A stretch of 41,595 bases of DNA from a virus (IMGVR_UViG_2541047952_000001), one strand, 5' to 3'. Numbered from the stretch's first letter, positions 26,007-34,318 are shown. Numbers and translations are program-made. Notes: a model not told the origin generated them from the letters alone.

Positions 26007-27046
26007 AGGCTGAAGCATGGCGGGTCAGCAAACTTGGTGAAATACCTGATATAACGTTCGAGGAAGCGTGTGTCAGGTGGCTTGAAGAGAAAGCACATAA
26101 AAAATCACTGGACGATGACAAAAGCCGGATCGGATTCTGGCTTCAACATTTCGCAGGAATGCAACTAAGAGACATTACTGAATCAAAAATTTATTCAGCA
26201 ATGCAGAAAATGACGAACCGGCGTCATGAGGAAAACTGGAAACTCAGGGCAGAAGCATGCAGAAAAAAAGGGAAACCTGTTCCAGAATACACGCCAAAAC
26301 CAGCGTCCGTTGCAACGAAGGCTACGCATCTTTCATTTATAAAGGCCCTACTAAGAGCCGCAGAGCGTGAATGGAAAATGCTGGATAAGGCACCAATTAT
26401 TAAAGTGCCTCAACCAAAGAATAAACGGATCCGCTGGCTGGAGCCCCATGAAGCACAAAGGCTGATTGATGAATGTCCGGAGCCATTAAAGTCTGTTGTT
26501 GAATTTGCACTGGCAACAGGCTTAAGACGCTCGAACATCATCAACCTTGAATGGCAACAAATAGATATGCAGCGCCGGGTGGCATGGATAAACCCGGAAG
26601 AGAGTAAATCAAACCGCGCAATTGGCGTTGCGCTGAATGATACTGCATGTCGCGTATTGAAAAAACAAATCGGGAATCATCACCGTTGGGTATTTGTGTA
26701 CAAGGAAAGCTGTACCAAACCAGACGGAACGAAAGCGCCAACAGTAAGGAAGATGCGGTATGACGCAAACACAGCCTGGAAAGCGGCGCTGAGACGGGCT
26801 GGTATTGATGATTTCAGATTTCACGACTTGAGACACACCTGGGCAAGTTGGCTGGTTCAAGCCGGAGTCCCGTTGTCAGTTTTACAGGAAATGGGAGGCT
26901 GGGAGTCTATCGAAATGGTTCGTCGATATGCTCACCTTGCACCTAATCACCTTACCGAACACGCACGGCAAATAGACTCGATCCTGAACCCATCGGTCCC
27001 AAATTTGTCCCAGTCAAAAAATAAGGAAGGTACTAATGATGTGTAA
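25883..27046 (+). CDS. int: tyrosine integrase (prophage, thrW-targeting)
   Basis: 387-aa [25 protein letters not shown]... with C-terminal catalytic-region motifs ([10 protein letters not shown]...RRYAHL); stops 15 nt before the thrW 3' fragment. Confidence 0.9.
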
Positions 27047-27060
27047 CTTATTGATTTTAA

Positions 27061-27109
27061 TGGTGCCGATAATAGGAGTCGAACCTACGACCTTCGCATT
27101 ACGAATGCG
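27061..27109 (-). tRNA. thrW: partial tRNA-Thr(CGU) thrW: 3' 49 nt only (attachment-site core), not an intact tRNA
   Basis: Reverse complement CGCATTCGTAATGCGAAGGTCGTAGGTTCGACTCCTATTATCGGCACCA matches the anticodon arm to CCA end of thrW as recalled; no D-arm or 5' acceptor strand upstream. Confidence 0.75.
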
Positions 27110-27293
27110 ATGTTAATGCATTTTTAACTACTTGAGCAATCAATCAAAACAACATACTTTATATTATAAAACACCAAGTTATAGCAATAAACCCGTTGAT
27201 TGAAATTAACAAAAGTTGATGTTTATTCCCTCCATTTACTTACACCAGCAGTTACATTATTGTAAGACAGCAATTCTCAACTGGAGCCGAAAA

Positions 27294-28619
27294 ATGGCGC
27301 TTTCAAGACAAAAATTTACCTTCGAAAGACTTCGCAGATTCACCTTACCGGAAGGGAAAAAACAAACTTTTCTTTGGGATGCAGATGTAACAACCCTGGC
27401 ATGCCGAGCAACTAGCGGAGCAAAAGCCTTTGTATTCCAAAGCGTATATGCGGGGAAAACCCTTCGCATGACTATTGGCAACATTAACGACTGGAAGATT
27501 GATGATGCGAGAGCCGAGGCAAGACGGTTACAAACATTGATCGATACAGGGATAGATCCACGAATTGCTAAGGCTGTAAAAATCGCAGAAGCAGAATCCC
27601 TGCAGGCAGAATCACGTAAAACAAAAGTGACTTTCTCCGTCGCCTGGGAAGACTATCTTCAAGAATTGAGAACCGGTATCAGTGCAAAAACTAAACGCCC
27701 ATATTCTACTCGATACATTGCCGATCACATTAACTTGTCCAGTCGTGGAGGCGAAAGTAAAAAAAGAGGCCAAGGCCCGACTTCGGCTGGACCATTGGCT
27801 AGTTTGCTCAACCTGCCGTTATCGGAGCTAACCCCAGATTACATAGCAGCGTGGCTGAGTACAGAAAGGCAAAATAGACCTACCGTCACTGCTCACGCTT
27901 ATCGCCTACTACGTGCTTTCATCAAATGGAGTAATTATCAGAAAAAATATCAAGGGATCATTCCTGGCGATCTGGCACAAGATTACAACGTAAGAAAAAT
28001 GGTTCCCGTGTCAGCGAGTAAAGCTGATGATTGCCTGCAAAAGGAACAACTAAAAAGCTGGTTTAGTGCCGTGCGTAGCCTCAATAATCCTATTGCATCG
28101 GCCTATCTCCAAGTACTTTTGCTCACTGGTGCTCGGCGTGAAGAAATTGCGTCGCTTCGCTGGTCAGACGTAGATTTCAAATGGTCAAGCATGCGAATTA
28201 AAGACAAGATCGAAGGTGAACGTATCATCCCTCTCACTCCTTATGTTTCTGAATTGTTAAATGTACTAGCGCAATCCCCAAATTCTGACGTAAATAAGGA
28301 GGGTTGGGTTTTCAGAAGTAACAGTAAAAGTGGCAAAATTATTGAGCCGCGTTCAGCGCACAACAGAGCGTTAGTGCTGGCTGAGTTACCACATATCAGC
28401 CTTCACGGTTTACGTCGTAGTTTTGGTACTTTGGCCGAGTGGGTTGAAGTTCCCACTGGTATTGTTGCTCAAATTATGGGACACAAACCCAGCGCTCTTG
28501 CCGAAAAACACTATCGCCGTCGTCCGTTAGATCTGTTACGAAAATGGCACGAGAAAATTGAGACATGGATCTTAAATGAAGCAGGTATTACCATAAAAAA
28601 CAACGTTGATATGCGTTGA
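27294..28619 (+). CDS. P4-type tyrosine integrase of a second integrative element (CP4-6 IntF-like)
   Basis: Preferred start MALSRQKFTFERLRRF at 27294 with GGAG RBS (track: 27216); C-terminal HGLRRSFGTLAEW...KHYRR catalytic-type motifs. Confidence 0.85.
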   Translation: MALSRQKFTFERLRRFTLPEGKKQTFLWDADVTTLACRATSGAKAFVFQSVYAGKTLRMTIGNINDWKIDDARAEARRLQTLIDTGIDPRIAKAVKIAEAESLQAESRKTKVTFSVAWEDYLQELRTGISAKTKRPYSTRYIADHINLSSRGGESKKRGQGPTSAGPLASLLNLPLSELTPDYIAAWLSTERQNRPTVTAHAYRLLRAFIKWSNYQKKYQGIIPGDLAQDYNVRKMVPVSASKADDCLQKEQLKSWFSAVRSLNNPIASAYLQVLLLTGARREEIASLRWSDVDFKWSSMRIKDKIEGERIIPLTPYVSELLNVLAQSPNSDVNKEGWVFRSNSKSGKIIEPRSAHNRALVLAELPHISLHGLRRSFGTLAEWVEVPTGIVAQIMGHKPSALAEKHYRRRPLDLLRKWHEKIETWILNEAGITIKNNVDMR

Positions 28620-28735
28620 TTCCATTAAAAATCAACATATTACAAAATATCATCAACTATTGATCAAGATAGATTTTCATGTATCGTAATACACAGTTTA
28701 GTCAATGATACAGCAACTACACAGGAGATAAGCCA

Positions 28736-29176
28736 ATGGCAACCCCAGCAACTGTATCCATAGAACCCACTCTGGCAGCTATCAGAGCTCGCTGGTGTAT
28801 TAATTCAAGTAAAACAACTCAATCCTTTAACGATCCTGCGTCCATGGAAGAGGTTGTCGAGTATCTCAAAGGAACATACTCAGCTCTTCGCAAGTCTGTC
28901 GCATGCGCCAAACTGAAAATTTTACATCTTAAACAAAGAATGCAAAATGCTACTAACTTTCTCGCGCGTCTGATGTCATGTAAAAATCAGGCATCCAGAT
29001 CGCATCACAGTACGGCTAAATCAGCTAAAAGTGCCTTATCATCAGATTCAGGTGATGGTAGTGACCCCGACCCCGAGCCCGAAACGTTTCCTTCTGCCTT
29101 CATTACTACCCCTACTAATTCAATAATGCTTAAAGCTTTCTTTGCCAATATCTCAATCACTGAGGTGGCAAAATGA
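28736..29176 (+). CDS. hypothetical protein (146 aa, YagN-like)
   Basis: First cargo gene after the integrase, translationally coupled to the AlpA-like gene by a 4-nt overlap; acidic Ser/Asp-rich C-terminal region. Confidence 0.45.
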   Translation: MATPATVSIEPTLAAIRARWCINSSKTTQSFNDPASMEEVVEYLKGTYSALRKSVACAKLKILHLKQRMQNATNFLARLMSCKNQASRSHHSTAKSAKSALSSDSGDGSDPDPEPETFPSAFITTPTNSIMLKAFFANISITEVAK

Positions 29177-29397
29177 GCGCATTCAAACTCCCGGATACAT
29201 CTCAATCACAGCTCATTTCAACAGCTGAGTTAGCTAAAATCATTAGCTACAAATCTCAAACCATTCGTAAATGGCTTTGTCAGGACAAATTGCCTGAGGG
29301 GCTACCTCGCCCAAAACAAATCAATGGCCGCCATTACTGGTTACGTAAAGATGTCCTCGATTTTATAGATACATTTTCTGTACGAGAAAGTCTGTAA
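29173..29397 (+). CDS. AlpA-family HTH regulator / excisionase-like protein
   Basis: 74-aa ORF LISTAELAKIISYKSQTIRKWLCQDKLP...INGRHYWLRKDV, typical AlpA-type fold signature. Confidence 0.65.
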   Translation: MSAFKLPDTSQSQLISTAELAKIISYKSQTIRKWLCQDKLPEGLPRPKQINGRHYWLRKDVLDFIDTFSVRESL

Positions 29398-29515
29398 TAA
29401 ATTACAGATTTAATTTTATTGATTTATAGCGATGTTGCCCCGAGAAAAATGGGGCAACACTGAGAAATTTCAGATAGTAGTTTTATATTGAGATAACAAA
29501 GAGGTTTCCTTAAAA

Positions 29516-30370
29516 ATGTCTAATAGTGTTACTAATTTTGAGATGAGCAGCGTTCTACCAGGAAAAAAACCTTGTCAAGGCAAAAACAATGAGTCACAGG
29601 TAGTACAGACTACTCCCATAAAAAAACACTCAGTCACGTTCAAAAATCAATCTTCATTAGGAGTAATTGATCATTATGCCAGACTAACAAATAAATCTCA
29701 CTCTTCCGTAATAGCGGAAGTTGTGGATTTGGCTATCCCTATATTAGAAAAATGCAATCGTCATAACTGGTCAATAAATGAAATAAAAAATGACCTGTTA
29801 AAGTTCTCTATAAAAGAAAGCATCAATCGAAGCCGAGGTAAAACAGAAGTAACTCTGGAAGAGTACTGTTCGTTAATCTGGAAAACGAACATCATGAGTC
29901 CATTAAAAATCCCCATTGCAGATTACTTTCAACTGAACGCTAATGATGAATTCATGGGGAAAGATGAAAAAACAGTTATACGTGAAAGGCTATCCTCGCT
30001 AAGGGAAAATTACGATATGGAAAAAGCCATTTACATTTACAATCAAAGACATTTTGATGTAAAGCATCAAAGTGTCTCAGGATATTCAAACATTATTCTT
30101 ATTCATAGAACAACCTTTGAGGGTTATTACTTTGATGCCGGGCAGGCTCTACTCTTGTCAACATCCCAATTGATTATATTCGGGATAAATGAAGTTCTTA
30201 GAAGAAAGGGGATTGTTATGCCTTATCCGGTTGTTTGTTGGATTGATATTTACCATGTCAATGAAATGGTGGTTATGCTGCCAGTGCTCCGCAAAACAGA
30301 TGTTTCCAACCGTGTTAATGTACCGGATGACATCATTATAAACCCATACTCACAAGAGAGCAGAACCTAA
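29516..30370 (+). CDS. hypothetical protein (284 aa, YagM-like)
   Basis: AT-rich ORF; no recognisable catalytic motif; size equals my recollection of CP4-6 YagM. Confidence 0.5.
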   Translation: MSNSVTNFEMSSVLPGKKPCQGKNNESQVVQTTPIKKHSVTFKNQSSLGVIDHYARLTNKSHSSVIAEVVDLAIPILEKCNRHNWSINEIKNDLLKFSIKESINRSRGKTEVTLEEYCSLIWKTNIMSPLKIPIADYFQLNANDEFMGKDEKTVIRERLSSLRENYDMEKAIYIYNQRHFDVKHQSVSGYSNIILIHRTTFEGYYFDAGQALLLSTSQLIIFGINEVLRRKGIVMPYPVVCWIDIYHVNEMVVMLPVLRKTDVSNRVNVPDDIIINPYSQESRT

Positions 30371-30396
30371 GAGGTAACAAAGAAGGACAAACAATT

Positions 30397-31095
30397 ATGA
30401 GAGGTAAAATACTACTTTACCAGTTAAAGTATCGCTGGCAATCACTCTCTATTTTTGGTTGTTTTTTATGCAAAATGACATTATTCAGGTATCAAAAAAT
30501 AATTTATGACACCGGAGTGCATCAGATGCGTTCATTTTTTTACACCATATGCAGTAGCGAACAGCAAGAAAGCATTACAGATCATCACTCACTTGCTGAG
30601 ATATGCCAAAAATTTAATATTCTACCTGAACATGTTGTGATCGAGCAGGTAGATATTAAAGAGGTTGTTTCAGAGCAACGTTTACTCAGACAATTGATTC
30701 ATCATGAAATGAACCGGCAGGACACGCTTGTCATTCCAGATCTAAGCTGTCTTGGCAGAACTGTGGAGGACTTACAGAATATTTTATTTTTTTGCCTTCA
30801 AAAAGAAATGTTTATCTACAGCTACCATCCAGCTTCAAGGATAGAGCCTTCTGCTGAAAGTTGCTTGTCTTTTTTGATTGCTCGTCAGGATACGATTGAC
30901 ATTCACAATCTGAAATCAACTAAAAGCCGATATCGACATGTTAAGAAGAAATTAGGACGAAAGGAGGGAAGCAAATACCGACGTGATATCACAATACTTA
31001 AGAAAGGTGGATTTACTCAGGCTGAGATTGCAAAGAAATTGAGTATCAGTTTATCGACTGTGAAGCGGCACTGGAATAACGGAATCATCGGTTAA
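30397..31095 (+). CDS. degenerate serine-recombinase-like DNA-binding protein (YagL-like)
   Basis: Resolvase-like layout: YTICSSEQQ resembles YARVSTxQQ but lacks the Arg; DTLVIPDLSCLGR resembles D.LVV.KLDRLGR; C-terminal HTH GFTQAEIAKKLSISLSTVKRHW. Possible internal start at 30526. Confidence 0.55.
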   Translation: MRGKILLYQLKYRWQSLSIFGCFLCKMTLFRYQKIIYDTGVHQMRSFFYTICSSEQQESITDHHSLAEICQKFNILPEHVVIEQVDIKEVVSEQRLLRQLIHHEMNRQDTLVIPDLSCLGRTVEDLQNILFFCLQKEMFIYSYHPASRIEPSAESCLSFLIARQDTIDIHNLKSTKSRYRHVKKKLGRKEGSKYRRDITILKKGGFTQAEIAKKLSISLSTVKRHWNNGIIG

Positions 31096-31199
31096 TTCCA
31101 GAAGCTAATTGCAGAGTAACTTTTTAACAGCCATCACAGGCTGGGGCTACCTTCGTCTCAAATTTAGATGTTGGATAGGTATTATATAATGGCATTGTG

Positions 31200-31358
31200 T
31201 ACTCTTACTACCTGTATTCACCAGTAAGAGTAGTAATCAGATCAGTATGTCCGTACTAAAATCTGATACCAGTATATACCGACAACAGTGACCAGGAATA
31301 GCCCTGCCTGTATGGCATCCCTGTACGGTCTGCTATAGACCGTAGGACCAAATACAGG
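31200..31358. repeat. cluster of nested inverted repeats upstream of the yagK-like gene
   Basis: TACTCTTACT / AGTAAGAGTA (31200..31209 and 31223..31232), TACGGTCT / AGACCGTA (31324..31331 and 31337..31344) and CCTGTAT / ATACAGG (31307..31313 and 31352..31358); consensus TATAAT at 31185..31190. Confidence 0.35.
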
Positions 31359-31366
31359 TATATATT

Positions 31367-31696
31367 ATGAAAACATATCAAGGTACTCATGGAGTACATA
31401 TCCTCGAATATCAGAGTAAGATTAATAAATTATTATGTTATTTGACTAACCGGTATCCTAGGTTAATTGCTGTACGTGTCGATCTCCACTATCCCAAAAT
31501 AGTTGATAACGGTGACAATATCTGTTGCTTCCCTAACCTGGAACCTGGGGTGATATCCCGGATGCGTGAATCCCTCAGAGCTAAGCTGGAGGCTGACCGT
31601 ACCCGTAAGGTGCGTGAGGATAAACGCATTTACCGTTGCCCTTTATTTATTATATGGGCGAAAGAGTATTCTGAATCAGGTAAATGCCACTATCAC
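31367..31696 (+). pseudogene. yagK-like gene truncated by IS1
   Basis: Reading frame runs from ATG 31367 straight into the IS1 left inverted repeat; the last 8 codons of the track ORF (GDAANLLI) are IS1 sequence. Confidence 0.5.
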
Positions 31697-31751
31697 GGTG
31701 ATGCTGCCAACTTACTGATTTAGTGTATGATGGTGTTTTTGAGGTGCTCCA

Positions 31752-32027
31752 GTGGCTTCTGTTTCTATCAGCTGTCCCTCCTGTTCAGCTACTGACGGGG
31801 TGGTGCGTAACGGCAAAAGCACCGCCGGACATCAGCGCTATCTCTGCTCTCACTGCCGTAAAACATGGCAACTGCAGTTCACTTACACCGCTTCTCAACC
31901 CGGTACGCACCAGAAAATCATTGATATGGCCATGAATGGCGTTGGATGCCGGGCAACAGCCCGCATTATGGGCGTTGGCCTCAACACGATTTTCCGCCAT
32001 TTAAAAAACTCAGGCCGCAGTCGGTAA
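31752..32027 (+). CDS. insA: IS1 InsA
   Basis: 91-aa product [43 protein letters not shown]... Confidence 0.9.
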
Positions 32028-32449
32028 CCTCGCGCATACAGCCGGGCAGTGACGTCATCGTCTGCGCGGAAATGGACGAACAGTGGGGATACGTCGGGGC
32101 TAAATCGCGCCAGCGCTGGCTGTTTTACGCGTATGACAGGCTCCGGAAGACGGTTGTTGCGCACGTATTCGGTGAACGCACTATGGCGACGCTGGGGCGT
32201 CTTATGAGCCTGCTGTCACCCTTTGACGTGGTGATATGGATGACGGATGGCTGGCCGCTGTATGAATCCCGCCTGAAGGGAAAGCTGCACGTAATCAGCA
32301 AGCGATATACGCAGCGAATTGAGCGGCATAACCTGAATCTGAGGCAGCACCTGGCACGGCTGGGACGGAAGTCGCTGTCGTTCTCAAAATCGGTGGAGCT
32401 GCATGACAAAGTCATCGGGCATTATCTGAACATAAAACACTATCAATAA
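31946..32449 (+). CDS. insB: IS1 InsB (expressed as InsAB' transposase by -1 frameshift)
   Basis: 167-aa ORF in the -1 frame relative to insA, overlapping its 3' end. Confidence 0.85.
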
Positions 32450-32531
32450 GTTAGAGTCATTACCGAAGTGATCGTATAACCAAGGGAGTAACCCGAGTAA
32501 CTGAGCGCCGAAATATTACGACTGGACGCCA

Positions 32532-33046: not shown

Positions 33047-34318
33047 TCATAACCGGGCTATGGGCAAATCAGTCCACCTGGTTGTATAAGCGGGAGAAAG
33101 GATCTCCCGCTTCATCTGCCATTCAGGCGCAATTCCCCGCCCCGCAAACCAGACTTTCCCCAGGCCGGAATGGTTGATGCCGTCGAGCACCTTCATCAGC
33201 TTATCACTGTGTGCTCTGGGCTGTACGTCATCAAACAGATTCAGCTGAGAGACGCCGGTCGGGGAGAAATCGTTCAGCATGATGCCGGCTTTGGCATAGC
33301 GATGGCCGGAGACCCAGATCCTGTCCAGCGCTCTGACTGCAGCAGTAATAATGTCCCGGGTGTCCCGCGTGGGTGTCATCAGTTTCTCTGTTGCCAGATT
33401 GCCGTAATAGGGCTCGTTGATGGCGAACGGCGAAGTTTTAATGAAAGCCGAGATATGCCGGCAGTACTGGTGCTCTCCGCGCAGCTTCTCCGCAGCGCGT
33501 TCTGCATGCTGACAGATGGCCTGACGCATGGCTTCATACGTTGTGACGCGTTCTCCGAAAGAACGGCTGCAGACAATCTGCTGTTTTGGCGGGGGTGCTT
33601 CTTCCAGCAAAATGCACGGTTCTCCGTTCAGTTCACGAACCGTTCTCTCCAGTACCACGTTGAAGTTTTTCCGGATGAAGGTTGGATTCGCGCGCGCCAA
33701 CTGCAGCGCAGTGGTGATACCCATTGTCCCCAGCGTCTTCGAAATTCTCCGGCCCACACCCCAGATTTCTTCCACCGGCTGCAGTGAGAGCAGTTTCTCC
33801 GTCCGGTGGGGATTGCCCGGGGTCAGGGCCAGAACGCCGCCAAATTGTGGCCATTCTTTTGACGCCCATTGAGCGCTTTTAGCCAGCGTTTTCGTGGGGC
33901 CCATGCCGACACCGATGGTGAGTCCCGTACCGTTACCAACATGGACACGCAGCTGCCGACCAAAGTCTTCAAAGTCAATACAGCGGTTGATGCCCCGGAT
34001 ATCGAGGAACATCTCGTCAATGGAATACTGTTCCACGCGCGGCGCCAGCTCTTCCAGATGAGTCATCACCCTGGCGGACATCGAGGCGTACAGCTCATAG
34101 TTGCTGGAGAACACGTGCAGCTTCTCGGGAAACTGTGCGTCCTTCAGCTGGAACCACGGTACGCCCATTTTGATGCCAAGTAGTTTTGCTTCTTTTGAGC
34201 GGGCGATAACGCAGCCGTCGTTGTTGCTCAGCACGACAACCGGTTTACCCCGCAGGTCAGGGCGAAACACCTTCTCGCAGCTGTCATAGAACGAATTGAC
34301 GTCGGCCAGGGCAAACAT
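33047..34318 (-). CDS. umuC: Y-family translesion DNA polymerase subunit UmuC (UmuC/MucB family)
   Basis: 423-aa [48 protein letters not shown]... with clear UmuC-type N-terminal and internal motifs. Confidence 0.9.

Follow-up and report, generated by a model that had tools for sequence, protein, structure and literature searches.

A putative excision, regulation and replication backbone beside the integrase of the CP4-6 island

Introduction

What are the small genes beside the integrase of the CP4-6 cryptic island of Escherichia coli for, and are they cargo of the island or part of its machinery? The question is raised by positions 27,110 to 31,696 of a stretch of viral DNA, IMGVR_UViG_2541047952_000001, whose full length of 41,595 nucleotides (nt) is referred to here as the window. 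An earlier note on this interval, made from the sequence, had taken it for uncharacterised cargo, possibly a regulatory or defence module, and had matched it by size to yagN, yagM, yagL and yagK of CP4-6. This match was correct, because the whole interval is 100% identical to the intF-yagN-ykgV-yagM-yagL-yagK segment of CP4-6 in E. coli K-12. The existence of the stretch is not news, and the interest lies in its possible function. With moderate confidence, we read the interval as the integrase-proximal backbone of CP4-6, with roles in excision, regulation and replication, and as neither cargo nor an anti-phage system.

Results

The interval is a truncated end of CP4-6

Identity to CP4-6 of MG1655 and many K-12 derivatives extends over all 4587 nt of the interval, and the matching segment is annotated intF, yagN, ykgV, yagM, yagL and yagK in the same order and on the same strand. 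The interval is the known, catalogued integrase-proximal end of the CP4-6 cryptic island of E. coli K-12. The segment is present in approximately 370–380 of 5426 complete E. coli genomes, the majority being K-12 derivatives. The best overall match to the window is the pig isolate Res13-Sevr-PER07-33, whose yagK is recorded as a pseudogene lacking its C-terminus, with IS1 behind it as in the window. Compared with K-12 CP4-6, the window has yagK cut at codon 110 by IS1 and lacks the remainder of the island (yagJ, argF onwards to thrW), and a phage-type integrase and prophage abut the attachment-site (att) remnant beside intF. Since yagK is without its catalytic half and the island without its other end, the module in the window is a non-functional, truncated remnant. 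H-NS and Rho keep these genes silent in K-12, where sites upstream of yagM and yagL rank among the strongest Rho-dependent terminators (PMC9160355). The coordinates of all features are collected in Table 1.

A fixed block precedes variable genes

Gene order was compared across 10 loci from reference genomes, found with a YagL profile, and 25 further loci from metagenome and viral contigs, found by a conserved-spacer pattern; several E. coli records were added (loci are labelled L0xx where they need to be told apart). Two architectures are observed. In one, IntF, YagN, YkgV, YagM, YagL and YagK follow each other beside thrW. In the other, the tmRNA gene (ssrA) is followed by IntA, a gene of 257 amino acids (aa) on the opposite strand, AlpA, YagM, YagL and YagK. 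YagN and YkgV travel with IntF, and yagM-yagL-yagK is common to both architectures, occupying the same place behind two unrelated integrase/excisionase sets at more than 20 distinct loci. The genes after yagK vary by locus and usually lie on the opposite strand. Mixta has type III restriction-modification genes there, EC2641 a methylase/helicase/GIY-YIG set, VE-V10-F a TrlF-type ATPase and Pseudocitrobacter a 1283-aa ATPase, and BRO-N proteins are encoded at several loci. The description as cargo does not hold up against this arrangement, in which variable genes start only after yagK. Because the fixed block precedes the variable cargo hotspot, it is better regarded as backbone.

Between intact copies, the ratio of nonsynonymous to synonymous substitution rates (dN/dS; synonymous sites are saturated) is 0.1–0.45 for all genes, with ranges of 0.08–0.09 for intF, 0.31–0.45 for yagN, 0.12–0.18 for ykgV, 0.19–0.25 for yagM, 0.12–0.16 for yagL and 0.10–0.24 for yagK, which shows purifying selection on all genes at the family level; the comparison of intF with L031 is excluded. 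Decay is also observed. In addition to the truncated yagK of the window, yagL is frameshifted or fragmentary in L003/L033, L017, L021, L030, L038 and L015/L041, and yagM in L020, although some of the frameshifts in metagenome loci may be sequencing errors. The pseudogenisation that the earlier note had named as evidence against a functional module is thus seen in several relatives, but not in the dN/dS of the families.

In Photorhabdus akhurstii (L014, 9441–11566), a divergent yagM fragment, a yagL (37% identical) and a yagK fragment are found. The neighbouring open reading frames (ORFs) resemble those of a phage tail or baseplate by size and order only, no integrase is nearby, and the spacer is not recognisable.

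YagK carries motifs of rolling-circle initiators

Full-length K-12 YagK matches Pfam YagK_YfjJ_C (PF11726, formerly named 'Inovirus Gp2') with 227 bits, and a weak match to REP_ORF2-G2P spans the HUH region. The motifs RVD, K-x-H-x-H-xx-L-x-F-N (HYH-ICLLFN) and D-Y-x-T-K (DYLTK) are invariant in 8 members of the family, with HYH at residues 108–110 of YagK and DYLTK at residues 184–188. Judged by these motifs, intact YagK relatives appear to carry all three signatures of HUH rolling-circle Rep proteins. In a phage collection, YagK had a single match, on one unverified 4.5-kb contig.

The window copy retains only the start of this protein. The reading frame is cut within the HUH motif (...KCHYH), right behind the second histidine, and the tyrosine motif is gone. 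The IS1 end GGTGATGCTGCC begins at 31697, directly behind codon 110, and the yagK ORF (31367–31696) runs into it, in agreement with the truncation by IS1 described in the earlier note. The nine bases on either side of IS1 (31688–31696 and 32465–32473) differ, leaving no target-site duplication, and thus the junction reflects an IS1-mediated deletion or rearrangement and not a simple insertion. Two different regions are joined by IS1.

The region upstream of yagK is more conserved than the genes

The strongest conservation signal, absent from the earlier note, is a non-coding block that runs from just past the yagL stop to the −10 box of the predicted yagK promoter. Its nucleotide identity among relatives is 82–97% where the flanking genes are 40–65% identical with saturated synonymous sites, and it reaches 98.6% (over 70 nt against L013) where the proteins are ~50% identical; the Enterobacter wuhouensis element differs at a single position in 70 nt. 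The block stands far above neighbouring coding DNA in five or more divergent lineages. Its reach upstream of the −35 box is not accounted for by the promoter alone. The hexamers of this promoter and of the one predicted ahead of yagN are both listed, for the yagL-yagK and intF-yagN spacers respectively, among constitutive RpoD (sigma-70) promoters of K-12 obtained by genomic SELEX (systematic evolution of ligands by exponential enrichment), where both are flagged HNS (PMC3946193).

Downstream of the promoter, the DNA carries inverted repeats. Three nested repeats had been described just before the IS1-cut gene, and repeats are indeed present (31200–31209/31223–31232, 31209–31218/31351–31360, 31236–31242/31261–31267 and 31324–31331/31337–31344) and partly conserved, but the outermost one (31209–31218/31351–31360) is not conserved in relatives. 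Because the promoter is located at 31163–31190, the repeats (31200–31358) lie in the 5' leader of yagK. Folded as RNA from near the predicted transcription start, the leader (31197–31375) reaches −52.2 kcal/mol, and none of 200 shuffled sequences folds as well (z = −3.6). In an alignment of 22 distinct sequences, 89% of cells are paired in the leader structure as a whole, compared with 22–43% when partners are slid. Ten pairs have changes on both sides, against 3.7 in shuffles, and ten is reached in none of 500 shuffles; one-sided changes mostly give G-U. These pair statistics favour a structure formed at the RNA level. No Rfam 15 covariance model matched the yagL-yagK spacer.

Two further observations concern the leader. 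GATC (Dam) sites occur in both arms of hairpin 2 in most relatives (window 31239–31242; alignment columns 212–215 and 238–241), but in the K-12/window copy the right-hand site is missing (AAAATC for AAGATC); methylation control is possible. On the opposite strand, a promoter-like sequence (31455–31482, TCGACA-16-TAGGAT), a consensus match only, lies inside the start of yagK and is directed back across the leader, where it could produce an antisense RNA.

An alternative is that nothing functional remains here, the genes being decaying leftovers under H-NS and Rho silencing, with repeats and a block that reflect only ancestry and recombination. This would suit the truncated yagK and missing island end of the window, the frameshifts in several relatives, the strong silencing in K-12 and the fact that most of the ~370–380 E. 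coli carriers are K-12 derivatives. For the strain in the window it is essentially true, and as such it is already part of our explanation. For the families as a whole we consider it unlikely, since yagM, yagL and yagK keep dN/dS values of 0.1–0.25 across elements with saturated synonymous sites, the non-coding block exceeds adjacent coding DNA in conservation in five or more divergent lineages, and the leader hairpins show compensatory changes.

An inverted 10-mer pair frames the yagK promoter

Exactly two inverted copies of a 10-mer, 164–200 bp apart, are present per ~20-kb locus in 13 of 13 yagL-yagK loci and in nearly all loci found later. The copies are near-invariant in 22 distinct sequences. 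They do not covary, and the left copy lies upstream of the promoter; on these grounds, the pair is read as predicted protein-binding sites in DNA. An RNA helix between 31131–31146 and 31302–31317, proposed by RNAalifold, was rejected because its left arm is upstream of the promoter and there is no covariation.

The cis elements are assigned to yagK and not to yagL, because the block and both 10-mers also occur at a locus with a yfjI-type gene (L026) and at one with a decayed yagL (L038). The yfjI-yfjJ spacer of CP4-57 has neither the conserved block nor the 10-mers. The L026 locus (493–2575 of metagenome contig OIFN01000217.1) is a mosaic. Its YfjI-type gene shares 73% identity with YfjI of CP4-57, the block behind it is of the CP4-6 type, and the YagK that comes next shares 96% identity with the K-12 protein; the recombination breakpoint coincides with the left border of the block.

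YagL is a recombinase homologue with degenerate catalytic positions and a conserved helix-turn-helix

YagL is homologous to serine recombinases over both the catalytic domain and the C-terminal helix-turn-helix (HTH). Its best named relative is the Mpi invertase family of NCBIfam (7.9e-11, residues 49–225, nearly full length). A weak HTH match and a match to Pfam Resolvase (PF00239, 7e-4, below the gathering score) were also found, and a profile of the family recovered Tn3 resolvase (6e-4) and gamma-delta resolvase (7e-3) from the PDB. The annotated protein probably begins 43 codons too early, because homologues in other genera are shorter (189–193 aa, starting at the equivalent of Met44) and the resolvase-like region begins at Met44. 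This codon, at 30526, has GGAG eight bases upstream.

Among 15 family members, the catalytic residues Ser10, Arg8, Asp67, Arg68 and Arg71 are not conserved. Position 8 is I, L, A or Q and never R, position 10 is S in some members and otherwise A, Q or K, and the resolvase motif DRLGR is replaced by SCLGR, NNLGE or KSLGK; the alignment included resolvase and Hin references, and the DRLGR region is confirmed by PDB alignment. The earlier note had reported replaced catalytic arginines and a retained HTH. In the window, Arg8 (now I) and Arg68 (now C) are indeed replaced, as is Asp67 (now S), but Arg71 is still present and Ser10 is also kept. The C-terminal HTH is nearly invariant across the family, 'STVKRHW' included. 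Since the catalytic positions are lost, the HTH is kept and dN/dS is low, YagL appears to represent a conserved family that employs the recombinase scaffold for a purpose other than strand exchange.

The layout resembles that of the serine invertons of Bacteroides (Mpi) and Salmonella (Hin), in which Mpi/resolvase homology is likewise found beside a promoter segment bounded by inverted sites, but the YagL family differs from them in its non-conserved catalytic Ser and Arg and in the single orientation seen in every genome. Present-day promoter inversion was rejected, because a synthetic query with the segment reversed matched contiguously in 0 of 368 E. coli genomes, the 22 distinct relatives are collinear throughout, and the catalytic residues are missing. 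It is still conceivable that the locus is a fossil inverton or looping switch, in which YagL, derived from an Mpi/Hin-type invertase, has lost catalysis but would still bind and bridge the 10-mers, switching yagK without inversion. Such a switch would fit the Mpi family as best named relative, the invariance of the YagL recognition helix, and the position of a recombinase-like gene beside a ~160–200-bp promoter segment with a conserved inverted 10-mer at either end; the absence of the flipped allele, the persistence of the sites without intact yagL (L026, L038 and L015/L041) and their unphased spacing make it improbable.

YagM, YagN and YkgV

The earlier note had listed a 284-aa AT-rich protein, and the yagM ORF is confirmed at 36% GC. 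The YagM family is very small, with 15 clusters in a set of 5.8 billion proteins and 37 representatives by exhaustive HMMER search. Of the two structure predictions that the note had called for, that of YagM succeeded: the AlphaFold model (22 sequences, predicted local distance difference test score (pLDDT) 81.7) has a disordered N-terminus, a ribbon-helix-helix (RHH) unit and an alpha/beta C-terminal domain. The predicted beta-alpha-alpha fold places the N-terminal part with the CopG/Arc/MetJ type of RHH proteins, and it is similar to RHH antitoxins. A search of a viral structure library with the YagM structure gave no match.

The model of YagN was unreliable (AlphaFold 2, pLDDT 53.6), with a helix at residues 34–89. 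YagN had been called acidic, but its isoelectric point (pI) is 9.27 and acidic residues form a patch confined to positions 103–116. Its family is also tiny (13 clusters among the same 5.8 billion proteins) and is only seen with IntF-type integrases, co-occurring with IntF and YkgV. PHROGs, NCBIfam and PADLOC gave nothing for YagN or YagM. Translational coupling of yagN to the following HTH gene had been proposed, and the overlap of the yagN stop with the ykgV start as ATGA is confirmed.

YkgV matches Pfam HTH_17 (PF12728; 27.8 bits, cut-off 27.0) and PHROG 66, 'excisionase and transcriptional regulator' (1.4e-6). This profile match, together with its place just after an integrase, identifies it as a small regulator of the HTH_17/MerR-like kind, with putative excision activity. 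It is not of the AlpA type suggested earlier: there is no match to Phage_AlpA (PF05930) at E <= 1, and BLASTP against AlpA of CP4-57 gives E = 8.3, without pairwise similarity. AlpA of the ssrA-type islands does match PF05930 (1.4e-21). Expression of YkgV protein has been demonstrated in K-12 (PMC6001520).

Table 1 Features of the interval and its borders (window coordinates).
Feature	Position	Strand	Basis or remark
Partial tRNA-Thr-like sequence (ptwF-type att remnant)	27064–27137	−	Rfam tRNA match, 45.5 bits
intF, P4-type tyrosine integrase	27219–28619 (start 27216/27219)	+	Pfam; 100% identical to K-12 IntF
Predicted yagN promoter, TTAAAA-17-TATCAT	28625–28653	+	Consensus scan
yagN, 146-aa basic protein with long predicted helix and acidic linker	28736–29176	+	ORF, pI 9.27
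ykgV, 74-aa HTH_17 excisionase/regulator-like protein	29173–29397	+	Pfam HTH_17, PHROG 66
yagM, 284 aa	29516–30370	+	Disordered N-terminus, predicted RHH ~38–106, orphan alpha/beta C-terminal domain
yagL, catalytically degenerate serine-recombinase homologue	30526–31095 (probable start; annotated from 30397, 232 aa)	+	Invariant C-terminal HTH
Hyper-conserved non-coding block, ~90 nt, ending in yagK promoter	31104–31190	+	Nucleotide identity among relatives
Left copy of inverted 10-mer, ACAGGCWGGG	31136–31145	+	Two inverted copies per locus
Predicted yagK promoter, TTTAGA-16-TATAAT	31163–31190	+	Consensus scan
Hairpin 1, predicted 5' end of yagK transcript, 10-bp stem	31200–31232	+	Five pairs changed on both sides
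Hairpin 2 (ATCAGAT...ATCTGAT, inner AGTA/TACT stem)	31236–31267	+	93–96% of cells paired, 22 sequences
Predicted long-range helix 31271–31280/31357–31366 over yagK ribosome-binding region	31271–31366	+	Minimum free energy fold; 86% of cells paired
Right copy of inverted 10-mer (CCCTGCCTGT on + strand), within yagK leader	31302–31311	−	Two inverted copies per locus
Hairpin 3, enclosed by long-range helix	31324–31344	+	94% of cells paired
yagK', first 110 of 208 codons of YagK/YfjJ (HUH Rep-like) gene	31367–31696	+	Pfam YagK_YfjJ_C, 3e-23
IS1 copy truncating yagK	31697–32464	+	Junction sequence; flanking 9-mers differ

Discussion

A proposed backbone for excision and replication of the island

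The following model would account for the block in intact islands. IntF and the excisionase-like YkgV, possibly with the translationally coupled partner YagN, would integrate and excise the island. YagK would act as an HUH-type nuclease of the rolling-circle Rep kind that nicks in or near its own conserved upstream region, leading to replication or processing of the excised circle. Its synthesis would be set by its own sigma-70 promoter, by the upstream block with the inverted 10-mer pair and by a structured leader in which the ribosome-binding site (RBS) is occluded; proteins bound near the promoter and the leader fold would both keep expression low. YagM, as an RHH protein, and YagL, as a dead recombinase that keeps its DNA-binding helix, may serve as DNA-binding regulators or accessory factors, by analogy with CopG/RepB and with relaxase accessory proteins. 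The regulatory role that had been offered as one possibility for the interval is plausible on this model.

Plasmid pMV158 provides a template for such a module. It combines the RHH repressor CopG, the HUH initiator RepB and an upstream double-strand origin with hairpins and leader control, and RHH accessory proteins are also known to accompany HUH relaxases. In the CP4-6 block, RHH and HUH-motif proteins are likewise encoded in one unit, with inverted repeats and a leader upstream of the HUH gene. Unlike pMV158, however, YagM has an extra domain of ~170 aa, a dead recombinase gene lies between the two, and the module belongs to an integrated island rather than to a small plasmid.

CP4-57 offers a comparison within E. 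coli. Its order intA-yfjH-alpA-yfjI-yfjJ is similar in that an integrase is followed by a small HTH protein, one or two genes and a gene of the YagK/YfjJ family, and YfjJ has every motif of YagK, with which it shares 43% identity. It differs in having YfjI (DUF3987-type) in place of YagM and YagL. The AbpAB defence genes follow yfjJ directly, on the opposite strand. More distant counterparts are the tmRNA islands of Pseudomonas (I23/I44/I55 class; VPI-1-like), for which a core of intY, alpA, an HTH protein, RadC and an 'inovirus Gp2-like' protein has been proposed, around which the defence cargo varies and genes for autonomous transfer are lacking (bioRxiv 10.1101/2024.08.29.610337). They share with the islands described here a tyrosine integrase, an AlpA-type regulator, an HTH protein, a Gp2-like protein and defence cargo, but they belong to another genus, differ in gene order, with alpA and the Gp2-like gene at the end opposite to int, and have no reported YagM or YagL homologues. 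Transfer of these islands by a jumbo phage has been demonstrated.

Several observations weigh against a replication backbone controlled in this way. The HUH assignment of YagK rests on motifs and a Pfam family; a YagK profile search of the PDB returned no Rep protein, and a single-sequence search was also without a match. No nick site or origin is identifiable from the sequence, and YagK, YagM and YagN have no known biochemical activity. On plasmids, YagK-like genes occur on large, mostly conjugative replicons rather than on small rolling-circle plasmids. For the leader, covariation gives modest support, the sequences offer limited diversity, and one of those aligned was the source of the structure itself. 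Part of the non-coding conservation could stem from exchange between islands by recombination and not from constraint. The 10-mer spacing is variable (164–200 bp), without helical phasing, and the link between YagL and these sites may be wrong, because the block persists at the loci where yagL is decayed or swapped for yfjI (L026, L038 and L015/L041). The sole activity published for YagL, non-specific RNA binding with chaperoning, was seen in vitro (PMC11587861).

A more specific version of the model is doubtful. It holds that yagM-yagL-yagK and the spacer form an undescribed replication/processing switch of tRNA/tmRNA-integrated defence islands, with an HUH Rep-like YagK governed by an RHH protein, by a dead invertase on 'fossil inverton' 10-mers and by an RBS-sequestering leader. 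This reading has some support, but there is direct evidence against the YagL-to-site link. If true, such a switch would account for the way in which islands that lack transfer genes multiply their excised circle or make it ready to hijack a phage.

Weakest is the proposal of an anti-phage or toxin-antitoxin-like module, with YagM as the RHH antitoxin-like sensor or regulator and YagL or YagK as effector, to which we give very little credence: the block does adjoin the integrase in islands that carry defence systems, the YagM N-terminus is antitoxin-like and HUH nucleases could act as effectors in principle, but PADLOC-DB 2.0 has no match for IntF, YagN, YagM or YagK and only generic HTH matches for YkgV and YagL (best 3e-4 to mad1; CARF/CasR HTH regions), none above noise, a toxin-like partner is absent, the position of the block is invariant while recognisable defence genes vary downstream, and the families are very small and confined to islands of Enterobacterales.

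The backbone reading matters because the yag block heads island families with anti-phage cargo in Enterobacterales. If YagK is the nuclease by which the excised island is replicated or processed, under control of YagM, YagL and the conserved spacer, a gap in the movement of integrase-only islands would be filled and four orphan genes of K-12 would gain a function. The mapped cis elements are concrete targets for binding, nicking and reporter work.

Features at the borders of the interval

IntF matches Pfam Phage_integrase (PF00589, 4e-17) and Arm-DNA-bind_3 (PF13356, 1e-10), and with arm-type DNA-binding and catalytic domains and a tRNA-derived att adjoining, it is a P4-type tyrosine integrase. 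The tRNA-Thr-like sequence lies between a phage-type integrase (25883–27046) and intF, 82 nt upstream of the latter. It is the sole Rfam 15 match over 27000–31800, and ARAGORN found no tRNA in the window. Its sequence matches the 3' half of thrW. It is an att remnant used by both elements, that of the phage-type integrase and that of intF.

The two integrases thus stand in tandem (25883–27219), the phage type directly followed by the island type with the att remnant between them. Tandem phage and island integrases are also present in L008 (3881–6588) and L011 (4742–7518). Because the arrangement recurs in these Mixta and Pseudocitrobacter loci, it suggests that the att copy restored by the island is a recurrent target of phage integration. 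At the other border, IS1 is followed by a 58-aa ORF, a Y-family polymerase gene (33047–34318, − strand) and a truncated peptidase fragment, all unrelated to CP4-6.

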